A stretch of 64,000 nucleotides of DNA from Candidatus Nomurabacteria bacterium (lineage in GTDB: Bacteria; Patescibacteriota; Minisyncoccia; Phycocordibacterales; SBAW01), in contig CALREW010000002.1 in assembly GCA_943356415.1 (NCBI GenBank), positions 6,639 through 70,638 of the forward strand, given 5' to 3'. Under the pieces are notes generated by a model. The model did not search any database. It was not told the DNA's origin and saw only the letters and a list, made by a program, of their open reading frames with translations. The position numbers and the translations under genes are program-made. Below are positions 8,889 through 52,328 of the stretch, piece by piece; the stretch's first letter is position 1; every line of letters starts with the position of its first letter.

Positions 8889-9254
8889 TTAGAATACGCG
8901 CTTCAGCCATCCTATAAATCCTTTCTCAGGCGTCGCTGGCGGCGCTTGAGGGACCTCTGCAACAACTTCAATGACCCCTTCCCCATCTTTTGCGACTCCG
9001 TAACGTCTGCGCAACTCCTCTTCAAGACCTCTATCCGAGGAGAGGGTGTCTATTCGGGCTTGGAGTGTCGCTTTACGCTCTTTAAGCGACTGCGCTTCTG
9101 CTACGGTCGATCGACGCGCCTCGGAAGCCGTGCTGTACCGGTCATACATGCGCAGGGCGCCTCTCAAAAATAGAAACGTTGCTCCGGCGAGAAAAAGCAC
9201 CGCGAGCGAGCGTTGCCCGTAGATTTTAAAGCGTCTGACATCTTTGGAGCGCAT
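8889..9254 (-). CDS. septum formation initiator family protein (FtsB/DivIC-like)
   Basis: N-terminal TM helix, coiled-coil, and a C-terminal FtsB-type motif EEELRRRYGVAKDGEGVIEVV. The tracked ORF extends to 9362, but the internal ATG at about 9254 (MRSKDVRRFKIY...) fits the family better. Confidence 0.6.
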   Translation of the reverse strand: MRSKDVRRFKIYGQRSLAVLFLAGATFLFLRGALRMYDRYSTASEARRSTVAEAQSLKERKATLQARIDTLSSDRGLEEELRRRYGVAKDGEGVIEVVAEVPQAPPATPEKGFIGWLKRVF

Positions 9255-9392: not shown

Positions 9393-9466
9393 GTAGCCGC
9401 TAGCCACTCGGGTGTAGCCAATAGGAACTCGGGCTCCCTAAACCCTATTGGCTAATGGCTACAGCC
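9393..9466. repeat. intergenic palindromic repeat element, copy A (TAGCCACT / CCAATAGG cores)
   Basis: GCTAGCCACTCGGGTGTAGCCAATAGG...CCCTATTGGCTAATGGCTACAGCC. The arms are inverted repeats of each other and match the elements at 32137, 37251, 52290 and 50337. Confidence 0.55.
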
Positions 9467-20140: not shown

Positions 20141-20225
20141 CGGAGGCGGAGAGATTCGAACTCTCGGACCCTTGCGGGTCGCACGCTTTCCAAGCGTGTG
20201 CACTAGACCACTATGCGACGCCTCC
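20141..20225 (-). tRNA. tRNA-Ser (anticodon GGA), class II with a long variable arm
   Basis: Minus-strand: acceptor GGAGGCG/CGCCTCC, anticodon loop TTGGAAA, variable arm GCGACCCGCAAGGGTCC, T-arm GAGAGTTCGAATCTCTC. The tracked ORFs 19966..20193 and 20006..20239 overlapping it are spurious. Confidence 0.8.
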
Positions 20226-20279
20226 AAGCGTACAGACATCCGAAGATATCCTGTACGGCATTTTATACACCACTATCCC

Positions 20280-21170
20280 CTACTTGTCTCCCAATAAGGC
20301 CTTCACACGGGCTTCAACTGGTGGGTGCGTTGAAAAAAGATTCGATATAAATCCTCGCGTCTTGCCAGTAGCGTCGAACGGATTAGCAATAAAAAGATGT
20401 GCTGTTGCGTTGTTGGCACGACGCATTGGTGTCCCATGTGCTGATATTTTCTGTAACGCTGAAGCAAGACCTTCTGGGTAGCGCGTAAGGAGCGCGCCGG
20501 ATGCGTCGGCAAGGTATTCACGGCGGCGCGATATTGCAAGCTGCATAAGGGTTGCAATAAGTGGTGAGAGAAGTGCGAGCACAAACCCAACAATAATAAA
20601 AACGCCTCCCGCTTTATTGTCACGATCTCCTCCAAAACGCGAGGCGCGCAAAAAGAAATCGGAGAGCAGCGTAACGAAACCAACGAGCACCACAGCTATC
20701 GTTGAAACCAACATATCTTTATTACCAATATGAGAGAGCTCGTGGGCGATCACACCTTCAAGCTCGGTCTTATTGAGAATCGCGAGCAAGCCGGTCGTTA
20801 CTGCAACAACTGCGTGTTTCGCGTTGCGTCCCGTTGCAAATGCATTCGGTGACGAATCATTGATGATATAGATTTTTGGTTTAGGAAGCCCTGCGGTTAT
20901 GGCAAGATTTTCAACAACGTTATGGAGGTCTGGGTACTGCGCGTCTGGTGCTTCAACGGCACCCGACATAGAAAGAACCAGTTTGTCCGAAAACCAGTAG
21001 CTGCCGACATTCATCACAATCGACAACACAATCGCCACTGGCAGGATGATTGGCTCATCGAGCACATAGGAAAACACCCAGCCAAGACCGATGATCGCAA
21101 TAAGAAACGTAGACATCAAAAGCCACGTCTTAGCGATGTTGCTATCTTGATGTGTGTAGATTGTTGCCAT
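20280..21170 (-). CDS. htpX: zinc metalloprotease HtpX (M48 family)
   Basis: HELSH zinc-binding motif (VIAHELSHIGN), 4 TM helices, and C-terminal FSTHPP. Confidence 0.85.
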   Translation of the reverse strand: MATIYTHQDSNIAKTWLLMSTFLIAIIGLGWVFSYVLDEPIILPVAIVLSIVMNVGSYWFSDKLVLSMSGAVEAPDAQYPDLHNVVENLAITAGLPKPKIYIINDSSPNAFATGRNAKHAVVAVTTGLLAILNKTELEGVIAHELSHIGNKDMLVSTIAVVLVGFVTLLSDFFLRASRFGGDRDNKAGGVFIIVGFVLALLSPLIATLMQLAISRRREYLADASGALLTRYPEGLASALQKISAHGTPMRRANNATAHLFIANPFDATGKTRGFISNLFSTHPPVEARVKALLGDK

Positions 21171-21201
21171 AGGAAATAGCCTCTATACCTCACCCTAAGA
21201 A

Positions 21202-21759
21202 CTAGAACTTAACGGCAACTGGTTGGCGAGCAGCCTCCTCCCCTTCGGAGAGTTCGAAAAGATCCATCTTCTTAAACATAAACATCCCGGCAATGACGTT
21301 GCCCGGGAACGATTCAACGCCGGTGTTTAGGTCGCGAACATTGGCGTTGTAGAAACGACGTGCGGCCTGGATTTTATTTTCGGTGTCAGAAAGCTCGCGC
21401 TGCAATTCAAGGAAGTTCTGGTTTGCCTTGAGGTCTGGGTACGCTTCGGCAACTGCAAAGAGTGACTTCAACGCGCCGCTCAACATATTTTCCGCTTGCG
21501 CTTTTGCCGGTCCTTGGACACCCATCGCTGCCGCACGTGCTTTTGTTACATTCTCAAACGCAGACGCCTCGTGTGCGGCGTAGCCTTTCACAGTCTCAAC
21601 AAGGTTAGGAATGAGATCGTAGCGACGTTTCAGTTGTACGTCGATATCTGCCCATGCTTCTTTGGTGCGATTTACCAAACGGACAAACGAGTTATACGAA
21701 AAAATAGCCCACAGTGCGAGGACAACGACTACTGCAAGAATGATGTAGAGAAAAGTCAT
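21202..21759 (-). CDS. lemA: LemA family protein
   Basis: N-terminal TM helix plus the LemA core (SYNSFVRLVNRTKEAWADIDVQLKRRYDLIPNLVE...). It is adjacent to htpX, as is common. Confidence 0.85.
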   Translation of the reverse strand: MTFLYIILAVVVVLALWAIFSYNSFVRLVNRTKEAWADIDVQLKRRYDLIPNLVETVKGYAAHEASAFENVTKARAAAMGVQGPAKAQAENMLSGALKSLFAVAEAYPDLKANQNFLELQRELSDTENKIQAARRFYNANVRDLNTGVESFPGNVIAGMFMFKKMDLFELSEGEEAARQPVAVKF

Positions 21760-24098: not shown

Positions 24099-27000
24099 TC
24101 ACTGGTGTGCAAGGCACCAGCAACACGCGTTTTCGAACATCCTGAGCCAGGGGGAGGCGGCATCCTCCTTCCAATTGTCAGGCGTATAGACCCATTGCCA
24201 CGGAAGAACCGCGCGCTCAGGGTGCGGCATCATACCGAGGTGACGTCCGTCCGCAGAGCAGAGCCCTGCGATGCCGAGCGGCGAACCGTTCGGATTGTAC
24301 GGGTAGCTTTCAGTCGAGATGCCTTGCGGCCCCACGAACCGAAGTGGTAAGAGCTTCTTACGCATGATATCCGCGAGCACGTCTTGGTTCGGGAAGTTGT
24401 ATCTCCCCTCACCGTGCGCACTATGGATGCCCAGCACTGACCCTTCCATCCCTTGCAAGAAGATGGACGGGCTCTCGTAGATGCGCAGCATGCTCCACCG
24501 AGACTCAAACCGTCCCGACGCGTTGTGCCCCAAGTACGGGCGCGACGCCTCGTCACGGTCGCTTCCAGGCAGAACTTTCAGATGCTGCATGAACTGGTTG
24601 CCGTTGCAGACTCCCAGCGACAACGTATCGGGGCGCTTGTAGAACGCCTCGAACATCCTGCGCACCTTGCGATTGAAGCGAACCACAGCCGCTTGACCAC
24701 GCCCCGCACCGAAGACGTCCTTGAACGAAAACCCTCCGGGGTACGCGAGCAGTTGGAACTGGTCCAGCGTGCTCACGCGTCCTTCGAGGATGTCGCTCAT
24801 GTGAACGTCCCACGGCGAGAAGCCTGCCAAATGCAGCGCGCCCCACATCTCCTCGTGGCCGTTACTCCCCTCTTCGCGCAGCACTGCAGCTTTCGGCCGC
24901 GTTGCCGTTTGAGAGAAGACCGCCGGAGCCGTCGGCGTGAAAGAGCGCTTGTACCGCACGGGCTTCGCTGCCTGATGCGATTTCGCTTCCTCACACGCCG
25001 TTGCAGTAGCGCTCTGCCCTGCGTTCAACGCATCGCTCGTCGATTTCCACCATTCACGCAGCGTCGTGATCTGCTCGCCCATAACAAGCGAGCCACGCGC
25101 ATCGCGAACACTGAGACGCCGCACCGATGTATTCCCGCGACCCAGGCGCACCATTCCGACGCCAAGGTTCTTGAAGGTCGAGGTTATGGACGCCTCGTCC
25201 TCCATCGCATACGCAAACACGTACCCGGCTTCCTCGGCGAAGAGGTACGGCAGCGGATCTACTCCTTGCGGGAGGTTGATCTGCATGCCGAAGCCAGACG
25301 CCACGCACATCTCGACGAGCGTTGCGATAAGCCCGCCGTGACTACGCGCGTGGTACGCGAGTACTTGCCTGCGCATGTGCAGCATTTGGAGTGCTTCAAG
25401 GGACTGCCGAAGCAGCTCAGGATCGATGTCGGGGCATTCGTTGCCGAGCTGTCCCAACGTCTGAGCGAGGCTCGAGCCGCCGAGGCGATTCAAACCTTTC
25501 CCTAGATCAACAAAGCCGATTGCGACACCAGCCTTCAAAGAAGGCAGCGCCGCAGTCACTCCACGCCGAATGTTGAGCACCGGCGCGTAGCCCGTGAGGA
25601 CAAGCGTGCCTGGCGAGGCAACTGTTACCCCACCGATTTTCACCGACATGGACAAGCTGTCCTTACCGCCGGTAATGCGAGTCCTCGTACGGTTGTGGAT
25701 GTCTGCGAGGGCGTCGGCCGCCGCATACAGACGAGCCATTTCTCCTTTCATGCTCGCTGGCCACATCCAATTAGCCTGAGTGCAGATTTCCTGCGTTCCG
25801 GAAATTGCCGCCGCACCCATATTGAGGTACATGTCTGCATACGCCATTCGCGCACCGGCCCGAGGGTCGATGAGCGACATGATAGGCCGCTGCCCCACCG
25901 TCATTGCGGCACCGGTTGTCGTGAAGTAAGAGTCGGAAGTTACGCCGACCCGACCGACAGGCACTGCCATCGGTCCGCACGTATGTGAGCGTGCCACTTT
26001 GCCTCCAACACTTGAATCACCGAGCGTGGTGACCCATCGGTTGGAACCAACCCTGGGAAGCCGCAGCACATTGCGCAACGCCTCGGTGACGCTTAATCCC
26101 TGAGGGATTCTAAGCGGCGGGAGTTCACGCGCGACCGTCACGTCTTCGATCGTGAGCTGACCGACCGCACGACGCAATTCCGCGTAGGTGAGATCGACAA
26201 GCGTCGCATCGTCGGTCGAATCGATGAAGCGGATGGTGCCGCTGTCATCGACTTTGCCCAACACTTCAAGTGGCACACGCTCTCGCGTGCAAATCGCTTG
26301 AAACACCGGCAGATCTTCCGGTGCAATGACAACGCCGAAGCCCTCTTGGCTTTCGCCGAGTAGCTTTTCAACTCGCCGAATCGACGGATCACCCAAATTG
26401 AGCGCTCCGAGGTCGAGCGTGGCGCCGAGCTGATCAACGAGCTCGGTACCGAGACTTCCGACGCCGGCTGCGCCCTGGTCGTGGATGGCCTTGAACGGAT
26501 TGCGCCCAAGCATCGCGACTGCAGCGTTGATGGCGCGGAACGTACGGCATCCCATCTCTGGGTCGCCGCGTTGCACCGCCTCATCATTCTGTTTTGCCGA
26601 GTTCGCACTCTGATCGGCACTTGAAGCAGTAGCGCCACCGAACCCTAAGTTGAACGTCGGTCCGCCGTAGCGGATGGCGAGCATCCCTGGTTTCAATTCC
26701 GCTTTCTTCTGGTGCTGACTGAGTACGCGACCCATGCCGCCGACAACGAGAATCGGCTTTCGATTTCCCACCCGATCACCCCACGGCATTCCTTGCTCGA
26801 AGGAATCGATGTTCCAGAGGATGGTCGGGTGACCAGACGCGTTGGCGTAATCACACGCACCGTGCGCCCCTTCAAGCAGAATGCGCAGTGGCGTAGCTAG
26901 TGTTGGGTCATGCAGTTCTGGGATTTCGCCCGGGATCGCATGCCCCTTGATGTTGAGGTTGCCGACGGAGATGCCGGCCCATAGCGCAACGCCTGGGTAT

Positions 27001-27932
27001 GCGCCGATGCCGATGGCATAGAGGTCGCGCAGAAGTCCTCCGACGCCGGTTGCCGCACCAGGAAACGGTGCGATCGATGTCGGGAAATTATGCGTTTCGA
27101 CTTTGCCTGTCGGGTTGAGTGTGTGTCGCACGATTGCACCGGTCGTTTTGTCGACGACGAAACAAACCGGCGACGGACCACCCGGTTCAAGTGGCAGAAA
27201 CAGCGGCACCGGCGCAAGTCCGTGCATGGCGCTCGCGTTGTCGCTGAAGGCGACCGTCGCGATGCCATGCTCAGCTCGGTGAGGTGCCCTGACAAGATCA
27301 AACAGCGTGTACGGCATGACGTTGCCATCGATGACGATACGCGCGTTGAACTTCAGGTGTCGGCTGTGGTCTGAGTTGTACGCCGGGAGGAAGAACAGCT
27401 CTTCGACAGTCGGGTCGCGACCTTTCTGAACGAAAAAGGCTGTGTAGGCCTCCTGCTGTGCGACGCTTAGCCCGATGCTGAACTCAGTGTTCGCACGTCT
27501 GAGCGCCTCCACTCCTTCCGTCATCACCGGAACTCGGACAAAGCGTTCCGCCGTCCGAGCACCAGTAAGTGTCGTGGGCAGCGTGGCGTAAACCGACTGG
27601 GTCATACGGTCGAAGCCTTGCGCGAGCAGCTGCTCCTCGGTTTGCGTGCCGAGGACGCGATGCTCGAACCGTTCGATTCGCGTCACGGGAACGTCGATTG
27701 ACCCGAGAATGGCCGAACCATTGGCCGACTCAGGCGTCGAGAACATTAGACGCGGTCCGACGGTTAGCATGCCGGCGAGATCCGGCTGAACATTTCTGAC
27801 CGAATGACCTGAACCGCCAAGAAGATATTCCAACTTGACGATATCAGCCGGCTTGAGCGCTCGCGCGGACTCGACAATAAAGCAATCGACCGGCGCGCCG
27901 CCTTTGTGGCGGTAGAGTACGGACGTATGCAT
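24099..27932 (-). CDS. purL: phosphoribosylformylglycinamidine synthase, large single-chain type (PurL with fused glutaminase domain)
   Basis: AIRS-type motif HNFPTSIAPFPGAATGVGGLLRD and a C-terminal class-I GATase motif LSLGVCNGNQFM, about 1277 aa. The tracked ORF is extended to 28223; the ATG at 27930-27932 (MHTSVLYRHKGG...) is the likely start. The gene is about 60% GC, above the 50% background. Confidence 0.9.
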   Translation of the reverse strand: MHTSVLYRHKGGAPVDCFIVESARALKPADIVKLEYLLGGSGHSVRNVQPDLAGMLTVGPRLMFSTPESANGSAILGSIDVPVTRIERFEHRVLGTQTEEQLLAQGFDRMTQSVYATLPTTLTGARTAERFVRVPVMTEGVEALRRANTEFSIGLSVAQQEAYTAFFVQKGRDPTVEELFFLPAYNSDHSRHLKFNARIVIDGNVMPYTLFDLVRAPHRAEHGIATVAFSDNASAMHGLAPVPLFLPLEPGGPSPVCFVVDKTTGAIVRHTLNPTGKVETHNFPTSIAPFPGAATGVGGLLRDLYAIGIGAYPGVALWAGISVGNLNIKGHAIPGEIPELHDPTLATPLRILLEGAHGACDYANASGHPTILWNIDSFEQGMPWGDRVGNRKPILVVGGMGRVLSQHQKKAELKPGMLAIRYGGPTFNLGFGGATASSADQSANSAKQNDEAVQRGDPEMGCRTFRAINAAVAMLGRNPFKAIHDQGAAGVGSLGTELVDQLGATLDLGALNLGDPSIRRVEKLLGESQEGFGVVIAPEDLPVFQAICTRERVPLEVLGKVDDSGTIRFIDSTDDATLVDLTYAELRRAVGQLTIEDVTVARELPPLRIPQGLSVTEALRNVLRLPRVGSNRWVTTLGDSSVGGKVARSHTCGPMAVPVGRVGVTSDSYFTTTGAAMTVGQRPIMSLIDPRAGARMAYADMYLNMGAAAISGTQEICTQANWMWPASMKGEMARLYAAADALADIHNRTRTRITGGKDSLSMSVKIGGVTVASPGTLVLTGYAPVLNIRRGVTAALPSLKAGVAIGFVDLGKGLNRLGGSSLAQTLGQLGNECPDIDPELLRQSLEALQMLHMRRQVLAYHARSHGGLIATLVEMCVASGFGMQINLPQGVDPLPYLFAEEAGYVFAYAMEDEASITSTFKNLGVGMVRLGRGNTSVRRLSVRDARGSLVMGEQITTLREWWKSTSDALNAGQSATATACEEAKSHQAAKPVRYKRSFTPTAPAVFSQTATRPKAAVLREEGSNGHEEMWGALHLAGFSPWDVHMSDILEGRVSTLDQFQLLAYPGGFSFKDVFGAGRGQAAVVRFNRKVRRMFEAFYKRPDTLSLGVCNGNQFMQHLKVLPGSDRDEASRPYLGHNASGRFESRWSMLRIYESPSIFLQGMEGSVLGIHSAHGEGRYNFPNQDVLADIMRKKLLPLRFVGPQGISTESYPYNPNGSPLGIAGLCSADGRHLGMMPHPERAVLPWQWVYTPDNWKEDAASPWLRMFENACCWCLAHQ

Positions 27933-27959
27933 GGCGTGCCCCTTCCTGTGGCAGATTTC

Positions 27960-27994
27960 AAAAAAACACGCACCCTCTACAAAGAGAAGGTGCA
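27960..27994 (-). terminator. intrinsic terminator / attenuator hairpin inside the purL 5' leader
   Basis: Minus-strand GCACCTTCTCTTTGTAGAGGGTGC (9-bp stem) followed by GTGTTTTTTTG, ending about 28 nt upstream of the purL ATG. Confidence 0.5.
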
Positions 27995-28088
27995 TCCAAA
28001 TGAACAGTACCACTCGCCCTCTATATGAAAAGGTGGGCCAGGCCCCTATGCGTTGCACGCAAAAGAGGCCTCTGATAGAGTGGGCGTA

Positions 28089-28319
28089 ATGGATGCTCAA
28101 ACGGTGCTTCCCTATGTCGAAATAGGGCTCTCCGTCCTCATCATCGCGGCCGTCCTGCTTCAACAGAGCGGCGCATCGATGGGCGGTACCCTCGGAGGCG
28201 ACAACTTCTCTGCGGCGTTCCACACACGCCGTGGCGCTGAGCGCGTTCTCTTTTACGCGACCGTTGTCCTCGGGGTACTCTTCGCGCTTACGGCTGTCTT
28301 CGCGCTCATCATCGCGTAG
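28089..28319 (+). CDS. secG: preprotein translocase subunit SecG
   Basis: Two TM helices and LLQQSGASMGGTLGG. The tracked ORF starts at 28053; MDAQTVLPYVEIGLSVLIIAAV fits SecG N-termini better. Confidence 0.7.
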   Translation: MDAQTVLPYVEIGLSVLIIAAVLLQQSGASMGGTLGGDNFSAAFHTRRGAERVLFYATVVLGVLFALTAVFALIIA

Positions 28320-30177: not shown

Positions 30178-32139
30178 ATGACTCCATCATCAGATAACAC
30201 AGCCAAGCCGCAGCGTTCGTCTCCGCAAGGAGGTTCCGCTGGTGCACGACGCGGCTCGCAAGGTCCTCGCCGATTTGGTGCCGCCGCAGGAGGAAATGGC
30301 CCACGTGGCGCACGACGTGGCGGACGTTCTATGCATCCTGCGCGCAGACAAACTCCCGGCTCGGCACCGCGCCCAGAGTTCGACCCAGACTTTGTTCGTC
30401 CTGCAGACGGTTTTGAAGGAGAAAGCGCTCCTGAGCGTGAGGCGGAGGACAACATTCCACCACTCGCTCCCGGAAACATCCGCATCATTCCGCTCGGCGG
30501 CGTCGAAGAAATCGGCCGCAACATGACACTGTTTGAGTACGGCGACGATATCATCATTGTCGACTGCGGGTTCCAATTCCGCGAAGACGATACGCCCGGC
30601 ATCGACTACATTCTGCCAAACACCAAATACCTCGAGGATCGGAAGAGTAAAATCCGCGGCATCTTCATTACGCACGGACACCTCGACCACATCGGCGCTA
30701 TCCCCTACGTTATCGACCGCATCGGGTATCCGCCGATTTACAGCCGTCGACTCACGACGGTGATGATCCGAAAGCGCCAGGAAGAATTTCCTCATCTGAA
30801 GACCATTGATATCCGCGAGGTTGAGAAAGAGGAGACGATACGCGCTGGCGCACTCAAGATTCGCTTCTTTGCGGTTACTCATACCATCCCCGACTCGATG
30901 GGTATCATCATTGAAACCCCGCACGGCGACATCGTTCACACGGGTGACCTCAAACTCGATCACGAAGGTGGCGTTCCGTCGAAGCGCGAAGAAGAAGCGT
31001 TCGGCATCTTCAAAAAAATGAATGTGTTGATGCTGCTTGCCGATTCAACGAACGTGGAGAAGCCGGGATTCTCAATTCCAGAAACGACGGTCTATAAAAA
31101 CATCGAGGAAGTCATACGCACGGTAAAGGGGCGTCTCGTTATCGGTACCTTCTCTTCACAGCTTGAGCGCATCATGAAGATTGTTGAGTTTGCTGAAGCA
31201 GCTGGCAAAAAAATCTGCATCGAAGGCCGCAGCATGAAGGTCAACGTAGAGATTGTGCTCCAGCTTGGCATGCTCAAAGCAAAGAAAGATACCTTCATCA
31301 CCGCCGAACAAATGGCGTCGCTTCCTGACAACAAGGTCATCGTACTTGCAACGGGCGCTCAAGGAGATGAGTTTGCTGCACTTATGCGCATGGCCATGAA
31401 GACGCACAAGTACGTCAAGATAAGCAAGAACGATACGGTATTGCTTTCATCGTCCGTCATCCCTGGCAACGAACGCTCCGTGCAGAAGCTCAAAGATAAC
31501 CTCAGCCGCCAAGGCGCGCGTATCATCCACCAAGCGACGATGGATGTTCACTCTTCAGGACACGCCAATCGTGACGAAGCTGTCTGGATACATCAAAAAG
31601 TTAATCCGCGCTTCTTCATTCCGCTGCACGGCTACCACTACATGCTCCGTGTACATGCCGATATCACCAAGGCGCTCGGCCGCGGCGAAGACGACGTAGT
31701 CATCGCTGACAACGGCACCATCATCGAAATACGCGATGAGGGCACAAAGCTGGTACGCCTCAAGGAAAGCGCCCCTACTTCGATTCGTATGGTTGACGGC
31801 TTCGCAATCGGCAACATCCAAGAAGTCGTTATCCGCGATCGCAAAGCGCTTGCCTCCGACGGTATGTTCGTCGTGATTGCGACCGTAAACCCAAAGACCG
31901 GCAAATTGCGCAAGTCACCTGACATCATCTCTCGCGGGTTCGTATACTTGCGCGAGTCGCAAGAACTCTTGCAGCAAGCGCGCATTATCGTCAAGAAAAC
32001 CATCGAGGACTCGAGTCACGGCCAACAGCCCATTAACTTTGATTTCGTGAAAGGCAATGTCACTGACGGTTTGTCGCGCTTCCTCTTCGGGAAGACCAAC
32101 AAACGCCCGTTAGTAATACCCGTGATACTTGGGGTATAG
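30178..32139 (+). CDS. rnj: ribonuclease J with an Arg/Gly-rich N-terminal extension
   Basis: Metallo-beta-lactamase / beta-CASP core (IIPLGGVEEIGRNM..., HGHLDHIGAIPYV) preceded by GSAGARRGSQGPRRFGAAAGGNGPRGARRGGRS. The tracked ORF starts at 30094, overlapping the upstream gene; the ATG at 30178 is more plausible. Confidence 0.85.
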   Translation: MTPSSDNTAKPQRSSPQGGSAGARRGSQGPRRFGAAAGGNGPRGARRGGRSMHPARRQTPGSAPRPEFDPDFVRPADGFEGESAPEREAEDNIPPLAPGNIRIIPLGGVEEIGRNMTLFEYGDDIIIVDCGFQFREDDTPGIDYILPNTKYLEDRKSKIRGIFITHGHLDHIGAIPYVIDRIGYPPIYSRRLTTVMIRKRQEEFPHLKTIDIREVEKEETIRAGALKIRFFAVTHTIPDSMGIIIETPHGDIVHTGDLKLDHEGGVPSKREEEAFGIFKKMNVLMLLADSTNVEKPGFSIPETTVYKNIEEVIRTVKGRLVIGTFSSQLERIMKIVEFAEAAGKKICIEGRSMKVNVEIVLQLGMLKAKKDTFITAEQMASLPDNKVIVLATGAQGDEFAALMRMAMKTHKYVKISKNDTVLLSSSVIPGNERSVQKLKDNLSRQGARIIHQATMDVHSSGHANRDEAVWIHQKVNPRFFIPLHGYHYMLRVHADITKALGRGEDDVVIADNGTIIEIRDEGTKLVRLKESAPTSIRMVDGFAIGNIQEVVIRDRKALASDGMFVVIATVNPKTGKLRKSPDIISRGFVYLRESQELLQQARIIVKKTIEDSSHGQQPINFDFVKGNVTDGLSRFLFGKTNKRPLVIPVILGV

Positions 32140-32206
32140 CCACTAGCCAATAGGGTTTAGGGAAATTTAATTCAATTCTAGTGGCTACACCCTAGTGGCT
32201 AATGCC
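32137..32206. repeat. intergenic palindromic repeat element, copy B
   Basis: TAGCCACTAGCCAATAGGGTTTAGGG...CTAGTGGCTACACCCTAGTGGCTAATGCC, between rnj and the MFS gene. Confidence 0.55.
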
Positions 32207-32235: not shown

Positions 32236-33375
32236 ATGCGGATGCTCTTCTGTGTGCTTACAGCGTTTCTCGCAGCCTTCCACGCCTACCTGACCGTCTA
32301 CATCAATTCGACGGTAGCCCTCAATAACGGTGGTCCCTGGGCAATCTCAAGCATATTTGTTGTGAGTGCCGTTGTGGCCCTATTCGCGTTTTATAACGCG
32401 CCACGGATGCTTGCACGCCTGGGCAACCGTCGATTTATCACGCTTTTCTCTCTGCTTGGCATTGCTGCACTTGTCGTACTTGCGATCTCGCATAATCCAA
32501 TTGCGATACTGATAGCGCTCGGCATACATGTCGCAGAAGCCCCTCTTATTGGGTATTCACTCGATATCTTCTTTGAATACGCGGTGCGTCGCGAAGGTGC
32601 AACCGGCGTTGCGCGTGGTTTATTTCTTACGGCAGGAAATACCGCGCTTGTTCTCTCCCCTCTTATTGCAGGAATCGTTCTTGATCACGCGGAGAGTTCT
32701 GCAGTGTATGGTCTTGCTGCAGCATTCCTTTTTGTGTTTTGGTCACTTTGCATGTTTTGTAGTCGCAACTTTAAGGACCCCGAGTATCGAAAAACAAACC
32801 TGCACGGCCTTCTAAAAACCGCGCGCGGCCACCTCGGTCCCGTGATTGCTGCACAATTCTGGCTGAGACTCTTCTATGGGTGGGCTCCTGTGTACTTGCC
32901 GCTGTATCTCACGACGATTCTTGGCTTTACATGGTCTCAAACTGGTTTTATTCTCGCGATTGCTCTTTTACCCTTTGTACTCTTTGAACTTCCCCTAGGG
33001 CGTCTCGAGGACGGGCTGTTGGGTGAGCGAGAAATACTCGCATTAGGATTTATTATTCTTTCATTTTCTATTATCGGTTTGTGGCTTGTGCCGTGGCACT
33101 CACTTATAGCCACTACGGTCATACTGTTCCTCAGCCGCACCGGCGCAGCCATGATAGAAATCGCTACCGAAACAAACTTCTTTAGGAGTGTTTCTGCCGA
33201 AAACGCAGACGCTATTGTTCTCTTTCGCATGATGCAACCGCTCGGCTGGATTGCTGGGGTAACGGTCGCCGCAGTAACCATCCTCCTAATTCCCTTTCCC
33301 TACGCGTTCGGTGTCCTTGGCGCGATAGTACTTCTCGGTCTCATCCCAACCATGCGTATCGAGGATTCCAAGTAG
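32236..33375 (+). CDS. MFS transporter
   Basis: 379 aa with about 12 TM helices and an MFS-like loop GNRRFITLFSLLG. Confidence 0.75.
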   Translation: MRMLFCVLTAFLAAFHAYLTVYINSTVALNNGGPWAISSIFVVSAVVALFAFYNAPRMLARLGNRRFITLFSLLGIAALVVLAISHNPIAILIALGIHVAEAPLIGYSLDIFFEYAVRREGATGVARGLFLTAGNTALVLSPLIAGIVLDHAESSAVYGLAAAFLFVFWSLCMFCSRNFKDPEYRKTNLHGLLKTARGHLGPVIAAQFWLRLFYGWAPVYLPLYLTTILGFTWSQTGFILAIALLPFVLFELPLGRLEDGLLGEREILALGFIILSFSIIGLWLVPWHSLIATTVILFLSRTGAAMIEIATETNFFRSVSAENADAIVLFRMMQPLGWIAGVTVAAVTILLIPFPYAFGVLGAIVLLGLIPTMRIEDSK

Positions 33376-37250: not shown

Positions 37251-37312
37251 TTAGCCACTAGCGTATAGCCACTAGAGGGTCGTTCCCTAGACCCAAGTGG
37301 CCAGTGGCTAAT
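37251..37312. repeat. intergenic palindromic repeat element, copy C
   Basis: TTAGCCACTAGCGTATAGCCACTAGAGGGTCGTTCCCTAGACCCAAGTGGCCAGTGGCTAAT. Confidence 0.55.
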
Positions 37313-44466: not shown

Positions 44467-46020
44467 ATGGCTCGCCCGAAGATTCTTGTCGTGGAGCTCG
44501 GCTCCCAATACACCCAGATCATCGGCAGGGCCCTGCGCGAGCTCGGGTACCGTACTGCCATCCTCGACCCTAAGAAGGCCGAGAGGTGGGCTGCGAATCA
44601 CGAGGTCAAGTGCGTCATTCTCTCCGGCGGTCCCCATTCGGTAACCGACGTGGATGCGCCGAAGCCTACGGAGCAGATGATGCGTCTCCTCTCCGAGCGC
44701 AACGTCCCCATCTTCGGGATCTGCTTCGGCATGCAGTGGCACGCACACCTCCTCGGCGGCACCGTCGAGAACATCGAAGCCAACCGCGAGTTTGGTCACG
44801 CGCTCGCCGCGCTTGATCCAGCGTCGCCGCTTTTCGCTGGCCTCAATGAAGAAGAGCGAGTCTGGGCGAGCCATGGCGACACGGTCACCACGCTCCCCGA
44901 CGGCTTTAAGGCCATCGGCTGGCAGACCACGAGCGGTGCTATCACCGCCATGGCCTCGACCAACGAACGGGTCTTCGGCGTGCAGTTCCACCCCGAAGTG
45001 ACCCACACACCCTCGGGCAAGGCGATCCTCGAGAACTTCGTTTCCAGCATCGCTGGCTGCGAACGCGACTGGGACCCGACGCTCTTGGTCGGAGAAATCC
45101 GCCAACATCTGTCGGAGCTCGCCAAGGACGGTGCGAAAGCCATCATCGGCTTCTCTGGCGGCGTCGATTCAACGACGCTCGGCGCCATCGCCTCTTCGGT
45201 CTTCGGCGAGCAGCTGCTCGCAGTTGCCGTGGACGCTGGCCACATGCGCGAAGACGAGATGGAGGAAGTGAAGCGGCACGCACAAGCGGCCGGTCTCACC
45301 CTACGGATCGTCGACGCACGCGAGAAGTGCCTCAAGGCACTCTCGTTCGAGACAGACTCCGAGAAGAAGCGAAAGGCCTTCACCAAGATCTACGAGGAAG
45401 CCTTCGCCGAAGTGGCGGCCGAGTTCGACGCCACCATCTTCCTGCAGGGTACGCTGGCGCCCGACGTCATCGAATCCGGCGAAGATGGACGCGACCTCAT
45501 CAAGTCGCACCACAACGTCAAGGCGAAGGTCGAAGGTTGCGAGTCGTTGCACCCGCTCGCGAGCCTCTTCAAGTACGAGGTCCGCGAAATCGCCAAGAGC
45601 CTCGACCTTCCCGAAAGCGTCTGGAAGCGCCAGCCGTTCCCGGGACCCGGCCTCACACTGCGCGTTGTCGGTGCCATGGTGACCGACGACGCGATGGCGC
45701 TAGTCCGCAAGGCGGACGCCATCGTGACCCGCGTACTCAAGCAGCACGGCGAGTACGACAAGGTAGACCAGCTGGTCGTGGCGATGCTGTGCATCAAGAC
45801 GACCGGGGTCAAGGGCGATGCGCGTTCCTACGGCTTCTCGATCGCCGTACGCGGCGTCATCACTTCCGACTTCATGACTGCGGAAGGGTACGATTTCCCA
45901 ACCGCCGTGAAGAAGGAGATCTCGCGCCAGGTCACCAAGCTCAAGATCGGTTACTACGACATCGTGCGTGTCCTGTGGGACACCACCGACAAACCGTCGG
46001 GTACGACGGAATACGAATAG
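44467..46020 (+). CDS. guaA: GMP synthase (glutamine-hydrolysing)
   Basis: GATase GICFGMQ with a catalytic Cys, PP-loop FSGGVDS, and the GMP synthase C-terminal domain. RBS GAGGAGGGG upstream. The gene is about 62% GC with strong GC3 bias, above the background. Confidence 0.95.
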   Translation: MARPKILVVELGSQYTQIIGRALRELGYRTAILDPKKAERWAANHEVKCVILSGGPHSVTDVDAPKPTEQMMRLLSERNVPIFGICFGMQWHAHLLGGTVENIEANREFGHALAALDPASPLFAGLNEEERVWASHGDTVTTLPDGFKAIGWQTTSGAITAMASTNERVFGVQFHPEVTHTPSGKAILENFVSSIAGCERDWDPTLLVGEIRQHLSELAKDGAKAIIGFSGGVDSTTLGAIASSVFGEQLLAVAVDAGHMREDEMEEVKRHAQAAGLTLRIVDAREKCLKALSFETDSEKKRKAFTKIYEEAFAEVAAEFDATIFLQGTLAPDVIESGEDGRDLIKSHHNVKAKVEGCESLHPLASLFKYEVREIAKSLDLPESVWKRQPFPGPGLTLRVVGAMVTDDAMALVRKADAIVTRVLKQHGEYDKVDQLVVAMLCIKTTGVKGDARSYGFSIAVRGVITSDFMTAEGYDFPTAVKKEISRQVTKLKIGYYDIVRVLWDTTDKPSGTTEYE

Positions 46021-50304: not shown

Positions 50305-50418
50305 TCAACATACCAGGCACCTGCTACGATTTGACGTAGCCACTGCGCTTCACTAGGCTTGCTTCGGGAACACCGTTGAAAGCCCGCCCGAAAAATTGAT
50401 GACCGAGGGGAGCCGACT

Positions 50419-52222: not shown

Positions 52223-52254
52223 CCGCCTTCGGGCGACCCGACCCACGAACACAG

Positions 52255-52281
52255 AACCCCGCCCGGGAGATGGGCGGGGTT
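52255..52281 (+). terminator. terminator hairpin after the 51707 gene
   Basis: AACCCCGCCCGGGAGATGGGCGGGGTT. Confidence 0.5.
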
Positions 52282-52289
52282 CGTGCTGT

Positions 52290-52328
52290 ATTAGGGCACC
52301 CTAGTGGCTATCTACTCTAATTTAGTGG
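52290..52328. repeat. intergenic palindromic repeat element, copy D (partial)
   Basis: ATTAGGGCACCCTAGTGGCTATCTACTCTAATTTAGTGG. It overlaps the stop of the 52322 gene. Confidence 0.45.

Follow-up and report, generated by a model that had tools for sequence, protein, structure and literature searches.

Gene Context and Copy Number of the Repeats

The window, by which we mean the whole 64-kb stretch of DNA analysed here, carries a family of short palindromic repeats in the gaps between protein-coding genes, the gene calls being taken from public contigs of the same organism. A DivIC/FtsB-like gene (8889-9254) lies on the minus strand, as does lepA, so that copy 1 of the repeat is situated 8 nt past the lepA stop codon and approximately 140 nt before the divIC start; the first-pass annotation had placed this copy between the two genes, and its gene context is corrected here. 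Copy 2 begins with the stop codon of rnj and ends 34 nt upstream of an MFS start codon, and copy 3 starts approximately 6 nt past a sortase stop codon and ends approximately 100 nt before the start of an ECF-sigma gene. All copies are outside coding sequence, as had been described, with one qualification to the term “strictly intergenic”: the first TAG of copy 2 (32137-32139) is itself the rnj stop codon. The gene content of the 64-kb window includes no transposase, RAYT or integrase, and PF05635 genes, which become important below, are found neither in the window nor in 80 lepA loci of relatives.

That a repeat family exists is borne out by motif counts far over chance: TAGCCACT is present in 10 places in the window (1.0 expected; 0 of 100 shuffles reached 10), and TAGCCACTAG, with up to one mismatch, in 14 (2.0 expected). 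Both the reading of individual sites and a scan for phased triplets identify the unit as a heptad starting with TAG, dominated by two forms, A (TAGCCA[C/A/T]) and B (TAGGGTn). Series of four TAGs spaced at 7 nt form four runs in the window, as against zero to two runs for the other periods between 4 and 12, and among all 64 trinucleotides scanned in the window, phasing at period 7 is unique to TAG and its complement CTA. The unit is thus 7 nt long, and not the 10-12 nt first proposed.

Search profiles made from non-window arms only (cut-off E < 0.01) matched both arms of the elements at 9394-9461, 32137-32201 and 37252-37310 as well as a remnant half arm, and nothing else in the window. Neither the site at 50337-50357, a single heptad, nor an octamer at 33107 within the MFS ORF was matched at this cut-off; we therefore count three complete copies and one remnant in place of the five or more initially reported, the copy at 50337-50357 being unsupported. 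A link with horizontally acquired genes had also been proposed, and it loses its footing here, as it depends on the two weakest copies, the unsupported one and the remnant.

Several other features of the window are recorded here. Genes for a PurL-like FGAR amidotransferase (24099-28223, 1374 aa) and a GMP synthase (44467-46020) have a GC content of approximately 60% against approximately 50% for the window, and such a foreign composition of purine-synthesis genes in a CPR genome suggests horizontal acquisition. A second strain (97.9% identical; L121, 316-1045) carries an insertion of approximately 730 nt with a LAGLIDADG_3-like ORF between the M48 peptidase stop codon and the tRNA at 20141-20225, which is absent from the window strain (window 20228-20278). 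A contig of the same organism (ena:ERZ27280315:k141_135100, L208) ends at window position 52273, 25 nt before the remnant, and a canonical G+C-rich hairpin (52254-52285) just precedes this assembly break.

Anatomy and Folding of the Elements

Each element consists of two arms of 28-35 nt, each of four or five heptads, whose TAG-phased strands converge on a loop of 3-9 nt (Table 1). One arm is alternating (A-B-A-x) and the other blocked (A-A-B-B). In the alternating arm of copy 1 the B heptad is without its TAG (TCGGGTG, marked B* in the table). The blocked arm of the same copy, which starts approximately 8 nt past the lepA stop codon, places TAG in all three frames of the lepA strand, and the decayed blocked arm of copy 3 still blocks one reading frame alone.

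Table 1. Parts of the repeat elements in the window, with the E values of their nhmmer profile matches.
Feature	Coordinates	Strand	Heptads or description	nhmmer E
Copy 1, alternating arm	9394..9428	+	TAGCCGC TAGCCAC TCGGGTG TAGCCAA TAGGAAC (A A B* A x)	1e-8
Copy 1, loop	9429..9433	.	5-bp apical stem together with inner heptads	
Copy 1, blocked arm	9434..9461	-	TAGCCAT TAGCCAA TAGGGTT TAGGGAG (A A B B)	2e-8
Copy 2, blocked arm	32137..32164	+	TAGCCAC TAGCCAA TAGGGTT TAGGGAA	5e-10
Copy 2, loop	32165..32173	.	ATTTAATTC; unlike loops of other copies	
Copy 2, alternating arm	32174..32201	-	TAGCCAC TAGGGTG TAGCCAC TAGAATT (A B A x)	8e-11
Copy 3, alternating arm	37252..37279	+	TAGCCAC TAGCGTA TAGCCAC TAGAGGG (A B A x)	7e-9
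Copy 3, loop	37280..37282	.	3 nt between heptad arrays; inner heptads pair GGGTC/GACCC	
Copy 3, blocked arm, decayed	37283..37310	-	TAGCCAC TGGCCAC TTGGGTC TAGGGAA	2e-4
Remnant half arm	52298..52316	-	TAGCCAC TAGGGTG; without partner arm	0.002

Whichever strand is folded, copies 1-3 give long hairpins (-31 to -36 kcal/mol, z -3.1 to -4.8), and the remnant folds no better than shuffled sequence. The outer A heptad pairs with the outer A' heptad, the inner A and the heptad next to it pair with the B'A' junction, and the 7 nt of the B heptad bulge out unpaired, so that the paired arms form a stem of approximately 22-28 bp, interrupted by this bulge and capped by a short loop that is not conserved in sequence. 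The loops of the three copies are mutually unrelated. Copy 1 of the second strain (97.9% identical) shows four changes, one in an arm and three in the apical stem, where a T-A pair is replaced by C-G and a G-C pair by G.U, the latter pairing solely on the lepA-sense strand; the compensatory change is a single observation and should be interpreted with caution, given that palindromes can self-correct at the DNA level too. No target-site duplication flanks the three window copies, and no clean excision footprint was seen.

Among known classes, Rfam at the gathering threshold returned only four tRNAs in the window and no family matching the elements, and a literature text search for the motif returned only unrelated primers and tRNA fragments. 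A consensus scan for intrinsic terminators, requiring a G+C-rich stem and a T-tract, called none of the three elements, the stems of which are not followed by a T-tract. This result bears on a reading of the elements as transcription terminators, or as paired DNA-uptake sequences doubling as terminators in the manner of Neisseria and Haemophilus. Strong hairpins just past stop codons are what a terminator would look like, inverted pairs of uptake sequences likewise combine conserved arms with free loops, and CPR bacteria carry competence genes. However, in other genomes a separate canonical terminator is present within the loop, many copies lie directly upstream of start codons, and the density of approximately one element per 20 kb, with none in coding DNA, compares poorly with the approximately one per kb of uptake sequences; we consider this explanation highly improbable.

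Other candidates were set aside. The reverse-complement arm gave no match to a sigma-70 promoter in a consensus scan. The CIRCE/HrcA operator has the form TTAGCACTC-N9-GAGTGCTAA, and TTAGCCACT resembles it, yet the number of copies, their spacing and the neighbouring genes do not match such an operator. Core sites of integron attC (RYYYAAC / GTTRRRY) are lacking at the hairpin base, where the arm ends read (N)TAGCCAC with a variable preceding base, and the flanking genes are housekeeping genes. TIGR-Tas arrays were rejected as well, the elements being dispersed single hairpins with no Tas-type gene among the annotated genes of the window.

Distribution in Other Genomes

A scan for TAGCCACTNNNGTNTAGCCA in one genome per species (596 Gb) matched at least 120 stretches. 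Since approximately 280 matches would be expected by chance for 16 fixed bases in 596 Gb, the number itself carries little weight, and the isolated matches outside the CPR appear fortuitous; in matches with a CPR label, the free positions are nearly always AGG and the heptad pattern runs on into the flanks. The hosts among the matches listed are labelled as Kaiserbacteria, Nomurabacteria, Harrisonbacteria, Paceibacterota, Minisyncoccia and “Saccharibacteria”. The GC content of the positive loci spans 33-57%, and their RpoA proteins are 51-81% identical to one another. The RpoA of L013, labelled “uncultured Candidatus Saccharibacteria”, is closest to proteins of Paceibacterota/Minisyncoccia. 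Given this affinity and the range of RpoA identities, conservation across CPR classes including Saccharibacteria is withdrawn, and as that label is unreliable, we claim a range within the class Paceibacteria/Minisyncoccia alone. Many further TPA MAGs titled “uncultured Candidatus Saccharibacteria” (L009-L119) behave as Paceibacteria, and the proteins of L023 are 75-89% identical to those of Kaiserbacteria loci.

The search of relatives proposed by the first-pass annotation thus finds the same arms in many MAGs of the Paceibacteria/Kaiserbacteria type, and finds them patchily. In 80 metagenomic lepA loci of relatives (LepA 58-71% identical, 453 kb) there is at most one doubtful arm, as against six arms in the 64-kb window. 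Some lepA loci without A/B arms have TAG-phased heptad hairpins built of other units, or “dialects”, adjoining lepA, such as TAGTTGC/TAGTGGC directly upstream of lepA in L145 (1462-1545); others lie at L199 4318-4340 and L136 2151-2180. Among 2.9 million viral contigs there were no matches, and a phage feature was accordingly rejected.

Rules of arrangement were derived from 83 motif-positive loci among the matches listed, together with the window; the criterion for choosing these loci was an exact A-B-A match, so that the counts of arm types are biased, though not the type of the partner arm. Arms up to 120 nt apart are convergent in 55 cases, divergent in one and on the same strand in one. 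Opposite an A-B-A arm there is a blocked arm in 36 cases, one of ambiguous type in 12 and a second A-B-A arm in one. The expected intergenic bias is present, with 3 of 92 arms in the positive loci falling within a long ORF. Structured apical loops were rejected as a general rule, as only 8 of 41 loops have z < -2.

PF05635 Genes between the Arms

Longer copies of the element contain a gene. In the positive loci, all seven PF05635 genes are enclosed by a sense arm, which ends 0-8 nt before the ATG, and a reverse-complement arm, which overlaps the stop codon. The product is a “23S rRNA intervening-sequence protein”, a four-helix bundle (Pfam E 1e-37) with a weak bAvd match; its nearest solved structure is that of the X. 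campestris XCC0516 protein (2gsc), described as a homopentameric toroid of four-helix bundles (PMC4990558). Homologues number 6928 at E <= 1e-10, and the best 120 of these are nearly all 119 aa long. The overlap with the arm is visible in the protein, in that the ending L[V/L/A/M/I]AKP, found in 24 of 40 retrieved homologues, is the translated arm CTA-GTG-GCT-AAA-CCC-TAG, and the variants of this ending agree with known variants of the A heptad. Contigs chosen by the protein instead of the motif have arms around the PF05635 gene in three of three cases, one of which has a SET-domain gene within the arms as well. No transposase was found inside the long copies, where PF05635, with the SET-domain gene of the one contig, is the sole gene type. 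The arm types do not keep to one polarity with respect to the PF05635 gene, as L209 is reversed with respect to L029 at the same junction.

In several Paceibacteria, short elements retain loops reading ...AATACAAATGCAA...TTGCATTTGTATT..., which match the surroundings of the PF05635 start and stop in the long copies; to judge by these loops, such elements look as deletion derivatives would. Sharing of loops within one genome was also seen, with two identical loops in L013, three similar ones in L035 and two with compensatory differences in L012, which points to copying of the element as a unit.

These observations bear on the earlier description of the repeats as REP/MITE-like. It holds in so far as the elements are dispersed, intergenic, hairpin-forming and found in other genomes; it does not extend to the encoded machinery or the interiors. 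A classical MITE or REP/REPIN could be moved in trans by a DDE or RAYT transposase encoded elsewhere, and the small size, the terminal inverted arms, the intergenic placement and the interiors shared by some genomes' copies would be in keeping with this, as would the two differently built arms, considering that the ends of Tn7 and Mu have sub-repeats spaced differently at the two ends. Against it, neither a RAYT flanked by the repeats nor any transposase is found in the 64-kb window or among the named recurrent neighbour families of the positive loci, the interiors of the three window copies differ from one another, no target-site duplication is visible, and the only parent-like long form with the same ends encodes PF05635. 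We therefore regard movement by such a transposase as improbable.

Insertions in rRNA Genes and Heptamer Repeats Beyond the CPR

A third setting of the arms is the rRNA. The 16S gene of L028 (Harrisonbacteria) has a 111-nt insertion at a helix tip (model positions 188-192), which is a heptad-armed hairpin in a related dialect, with TAGCGAC/TAGCGAT in one arm and TAGCCAC in the complementary strand of the other. A second element, the reverse-complement arm of which has the A and B heptads proper (TAGCCAC, TAGGGTT), lies 5 nt before the 5' end of the same 16S gene. Insertions of this kind have precedents. The 23S IVS of Coxiella is a selfish element of 428 nt with a bulged 28-bp terminal stem that is cut by RNase III, and its loop holds the S23p ORF, preceded by two or three tandem heptamers GACAGAT, the number depending on the strain (PMC4990558). 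In CPR bacteria, PF05635 ORFs have been reported from rRNA genes, along with numerous short insertions that are not introns and occupy known IVS sites (PMC11270868).

With the PF05635 protein as query, tblastn against plasmids retrieved 36 records, mostly from Nostocales. All 15 plasmid PF05635 genes inspected have short-period tandem arrays on both sides, which in 11 loci are inverted and of period 7. The units include TAGGGAG, TAGCTGT/TAGCTTT, TCAGGAG (three loci), TAGGGTG, AAAGGGA, GGTGACA, AGGTTTA (Riemerella) and GAGGACG/GATGACA (Azospirillum), of which TAGGGTG is identical to the B heptad of the CPR arms. The Azospirillum copy lies within a 23S rRNA gene between inverted heptad arms, and GATGACA is a cyclic permutation of the Coxiella unit. 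Two loci have inverted arrays of period 8 (Gemmatirosa, Picosynechococcus), and another two have direct instead of inverted arrays (Nostoc sp. HK-01, Pseudanabaena); in Nostoc PCC 7120 the array on the upstream side was too weak for classification. Repeat-flanked PF05635 genes span cyanobacteria, Bacteroidota, Alphaproteobacteria and Gemmatimonadota. A control stretch, 50 kb of pNPUN02 (59 genes), contains only approximately four period-7 arrays of at least three units, one of which adjoins the PF05635 gene and two of which form an ORF-less inverted pair. A stop triplet is present in 10 of 12 unit dialects (rough binomial p ~0.02).

The CRISPR-cas operons of three cyanobacterial plasmids (L221, L229, L230) harbour PF05635 genes together with their arrays, the positions being cas6/cas4, cas10/cmr3 and immediately ahead of cas4; in L215 the gene lies between nrdB and nrdA.

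Intergenic heptamer repeats have been noted since 1990, and the rRNA IVS with its S23p gene since the 1990s. The TAACTGA repeats of Beggiatoaceae, Cyanobacteria and Bacteroidetes were described without reference to PF05635 (PMC4679880), as were the GGGGAYT/GGGAATC repeats of Nostoc and Xanthomonas (PMC4692102); the cyanobacterial STRR are among the sequences cited in the latter paper. Beyond one remark on Coxiella, the published accounts that we found leave heptamer repeats and IVS/S23p unconnected.

Occupied Junctions, Stop Codons and Reading Frames

Orthologous gene junctions can be compared in filled and empty states. At the Y-rnc junction an element is present in L037 and L069, where the upstream gene terminates on an arm TAG, and none in L040, where the genes overlap, or in L115, which has a 22-nt gap. 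The LemA-M48 junction is a 31-nt gap in the window and holds a gene-bearing element in five other loci (L023, L024, L029, L049, L209). In these comparisons the flanking proteins are 49-61% identical, the arms nearly identical and the loops unrelated, a pattern compatible with old constrained elements and with repeated insertion alike. The M48 and LemA stop codons of the window (20270-20285, 21190-21205) are each followed 7 nt on by a second TAG (TAGGGGA TAGTGGT and TAGTTCT TAGGGTG), and these double TAGs may be eroded arms at the junction that holds the PF05635 element in other genomes.

Genes frequently end on the arms. Among plus-strand ORFs adjoining an A-B-A arm, 29 of 49 stop exactly on a heptad TAG, at distances of -10, -3, +4 and +11. 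The reverse-complement arm has one open frame only, and some downstream genes start in the loop and read through it in that frame, for example with ...FPKPYWLVA... and a prepilin-like leader in L035 and with ...TSGYWLVA... in L048 and L075. The first two of these loci (L035, 3984-6304; L048, 3630-4386) share a conserved operon of unknown membrane/pilin-like proteins in which each intergenic gap is one element, and one 24-aa leader there ends ...SGSPG before MTFIEVLV, a prepilin-type motif. Gene calling in CPR MAGs is affected by the arms, since they contribute stop codons and in some cases also residues at the N or C terminus, the LVAKP ending being one example.

Heptads that have lost their TAG have become TGG (7), TCG (5), TAA (6) or TGA (2). 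This lack of enrichment for TAA and TGA implies that TAG is kept as a sequence and not as any stop codon, and, with two window arms having lost the blocking of all three frames, that all-frame stopping is not strictly maintained. A generic “three-frame stop cassette” as the selected function is weakened by the same counts and arms. A fixed orientation of the element with respect to transcription was likewise rejected, being seen in three of three window copies and mixed overall (approximately 21 to 14).

The junctions and the conservation of the arms bring in the main rival explanation, a host cis-element kept by selection, in which each heptad would be one unit for a cooperatively binding DNA- or RNA-binding protein, like the heptad operators of ribbon-helix-helix repressors, and the whole would serve as an insulator or as operon punctuation. 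The arrays of binding sites for one DNA-binding protein suggested by the first-pass annotation are a related idea, which we treat as conjectural. The arms are nearly identical over genomes of 33-57% GC in which flanks are 49-61% identical and loops drift, the same junctions are occupied in several genomes, elements lie inside core operons such as rpoA-rplQ-rplM, and the mixed orientation suits recognition of double-stranded DNA. Near-identical arms at one junction fit purifying selection on a host function, or insertion hot spots, as well as they fit selfish spread. Against a host cis-element, most relatives are without the element, window copies are decayed, copies occur in a 16S rRNA helix and around a selfish-type gene, and PF05635 is the sole candidate for the binding protein. 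On this balance a host cis-element appears unlikely, if less so than the explanations discussed above.

Interpretation and Significance

We suggest, with a probability of roughly 0.6, that the repeats of the window are the ORF-less short form of an IVS-type selfish hairpin element, located between protein genes. Firm in this respect are the anatomy of the elements, arms in common with PF05635-carrying copies, an rRNA-borne copy with closely related heptads, and a patchy distribution. Also shown are the filled and empty states of orthologous junctions and the genes ending on arm TAGs. Measured against the known IVS, the window copies have the long imperfect stem (approximately 28 bp) formed from terminal inverted repeats; a PF05635 ORF in the loop is absent from them and present in related loci with the same arms; and they lie between protein genes instead of at the tip of a 16S or 23S rRNA helix. 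With loops of 3-9 nt and no PF05635 gene in the window, they are ORF-less derivatives at best, and their link to PF05635 runs through the common arms only.

Signs of selfish behavior are the rarity of arms in lepA loci of relatives, the filled and empty junctions, the loops shared within genomes and the decay of window copies. Against the IVS-type reading are the lack of a PF05635 gene in the window and of a target-site duplication or clean excision footprint, the near-identical arms at junctions with divergent flanks, the incomplete maintenance of all-frame stopping, and the small number of structured loops (8 of 41). Under the IVS-type reading, the element would spread, or would have spread, as a unit, possibly helped by the PF05635 protein as the sole candidate factor. 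Once transcribed, its long stem would presumably be cut by RNase III, by analogy with characterised rRNA IVSs, and such a cut would separate the flanking cistrons; an rnc gene occurs in related genomes. Insertion at the gene ends of a very compact genome may have been tolerated because the arms place stop codons in all three frames, each arm from its own side.

A wider reading is tentative, and we hold it as a whole to be possible without favoring it: the intergenic heptamer arrays of many bacteria, including STRR, GGGGAYT, TAACTGA, the heptanucleotide hairpin of the Nostoc trnL intron and the CPR arms, may form a single class of selfish hairpin element that crosses phyla. In its autonomous form it would carry the gene for a pentameric PF05635 four-helix-bundle protein that recognises heptads and drives spread or array expansion, and the classical rRNA IVSs would be copies that landed in rRNA helices.

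Neither the heptamer repeats nor IVS/S23p has an accepted function or mechanism of spread. The present genomes offer a clean case in a tiny, compact CPR setting, where the arms stand alone between housekeeping genes and also around a PF05635 gene, with a third setting in the 16S rRNA helix of a related genome in a closely related heptad dialect. Several questions become testable in them: binding of heptad arrays by PF05635 proteins, punctuation of operons by RNase III at the elements, and a correspondence between genome-wide heptamer excess and PF05635 copy number. The arms also coincide with at least one assembly break.

Comparison with Known Systems

REP/BIME, REPIN and Correia-type MITEs are palindromes scattered between genes that form hairpins as RNA, and Correia elements are RNase III substrates able to supply stops or promoters. 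The window elements are likewise dispersed intergenic palindromes with RNA hairpin folds. In contrast to those families, they are common to genomes at 50-60% protein identity and not confined to one species or genus, their interior is not conserved between copies in this genome, neither a RAYT nor a transposase was found in the window or among the named neighbour families, and no TA duplication was seen.

The STRR, GGGGAYT and TAACTGA repeats share with the window family the period of 7, a strictly or mostly intergenic location flush with gene ends and starts, and a patchy occurrence over distant lineages for which horizontal transfer is suspected; TAACTGA repeats also place stops in all three frames. 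Those repeats were described mainly as direct tandem arrays of one unit, without a link to PF05635, whereas the window family, although likewise made of tandem 7-nt intergenic units, combines two unit types in inverted, asymmetric arm pairs and has an explicit PF05635 link.

The rRNA IVS, as described in Coxiella (PMC4990558), differs from the window copies in that these are ORF-less and located between protein genes, with processing by RNase III proposed here by analogy, and in that their arms are wholly heptad arrays with in-phase TAG and a fixed asymmetry of A-B-A against A-A-B-B. The resemblance extends to the terminal inverted repeats forming a stem of approximately 28 bp with a bulge, to tandem heptamers near the ORF start, to a PF05635 gene in the loop of long copies, and to a patchy spread that suggests horizontal movement, together with a related copy at the tip of an rRNA helix in Harrisonbacteria.
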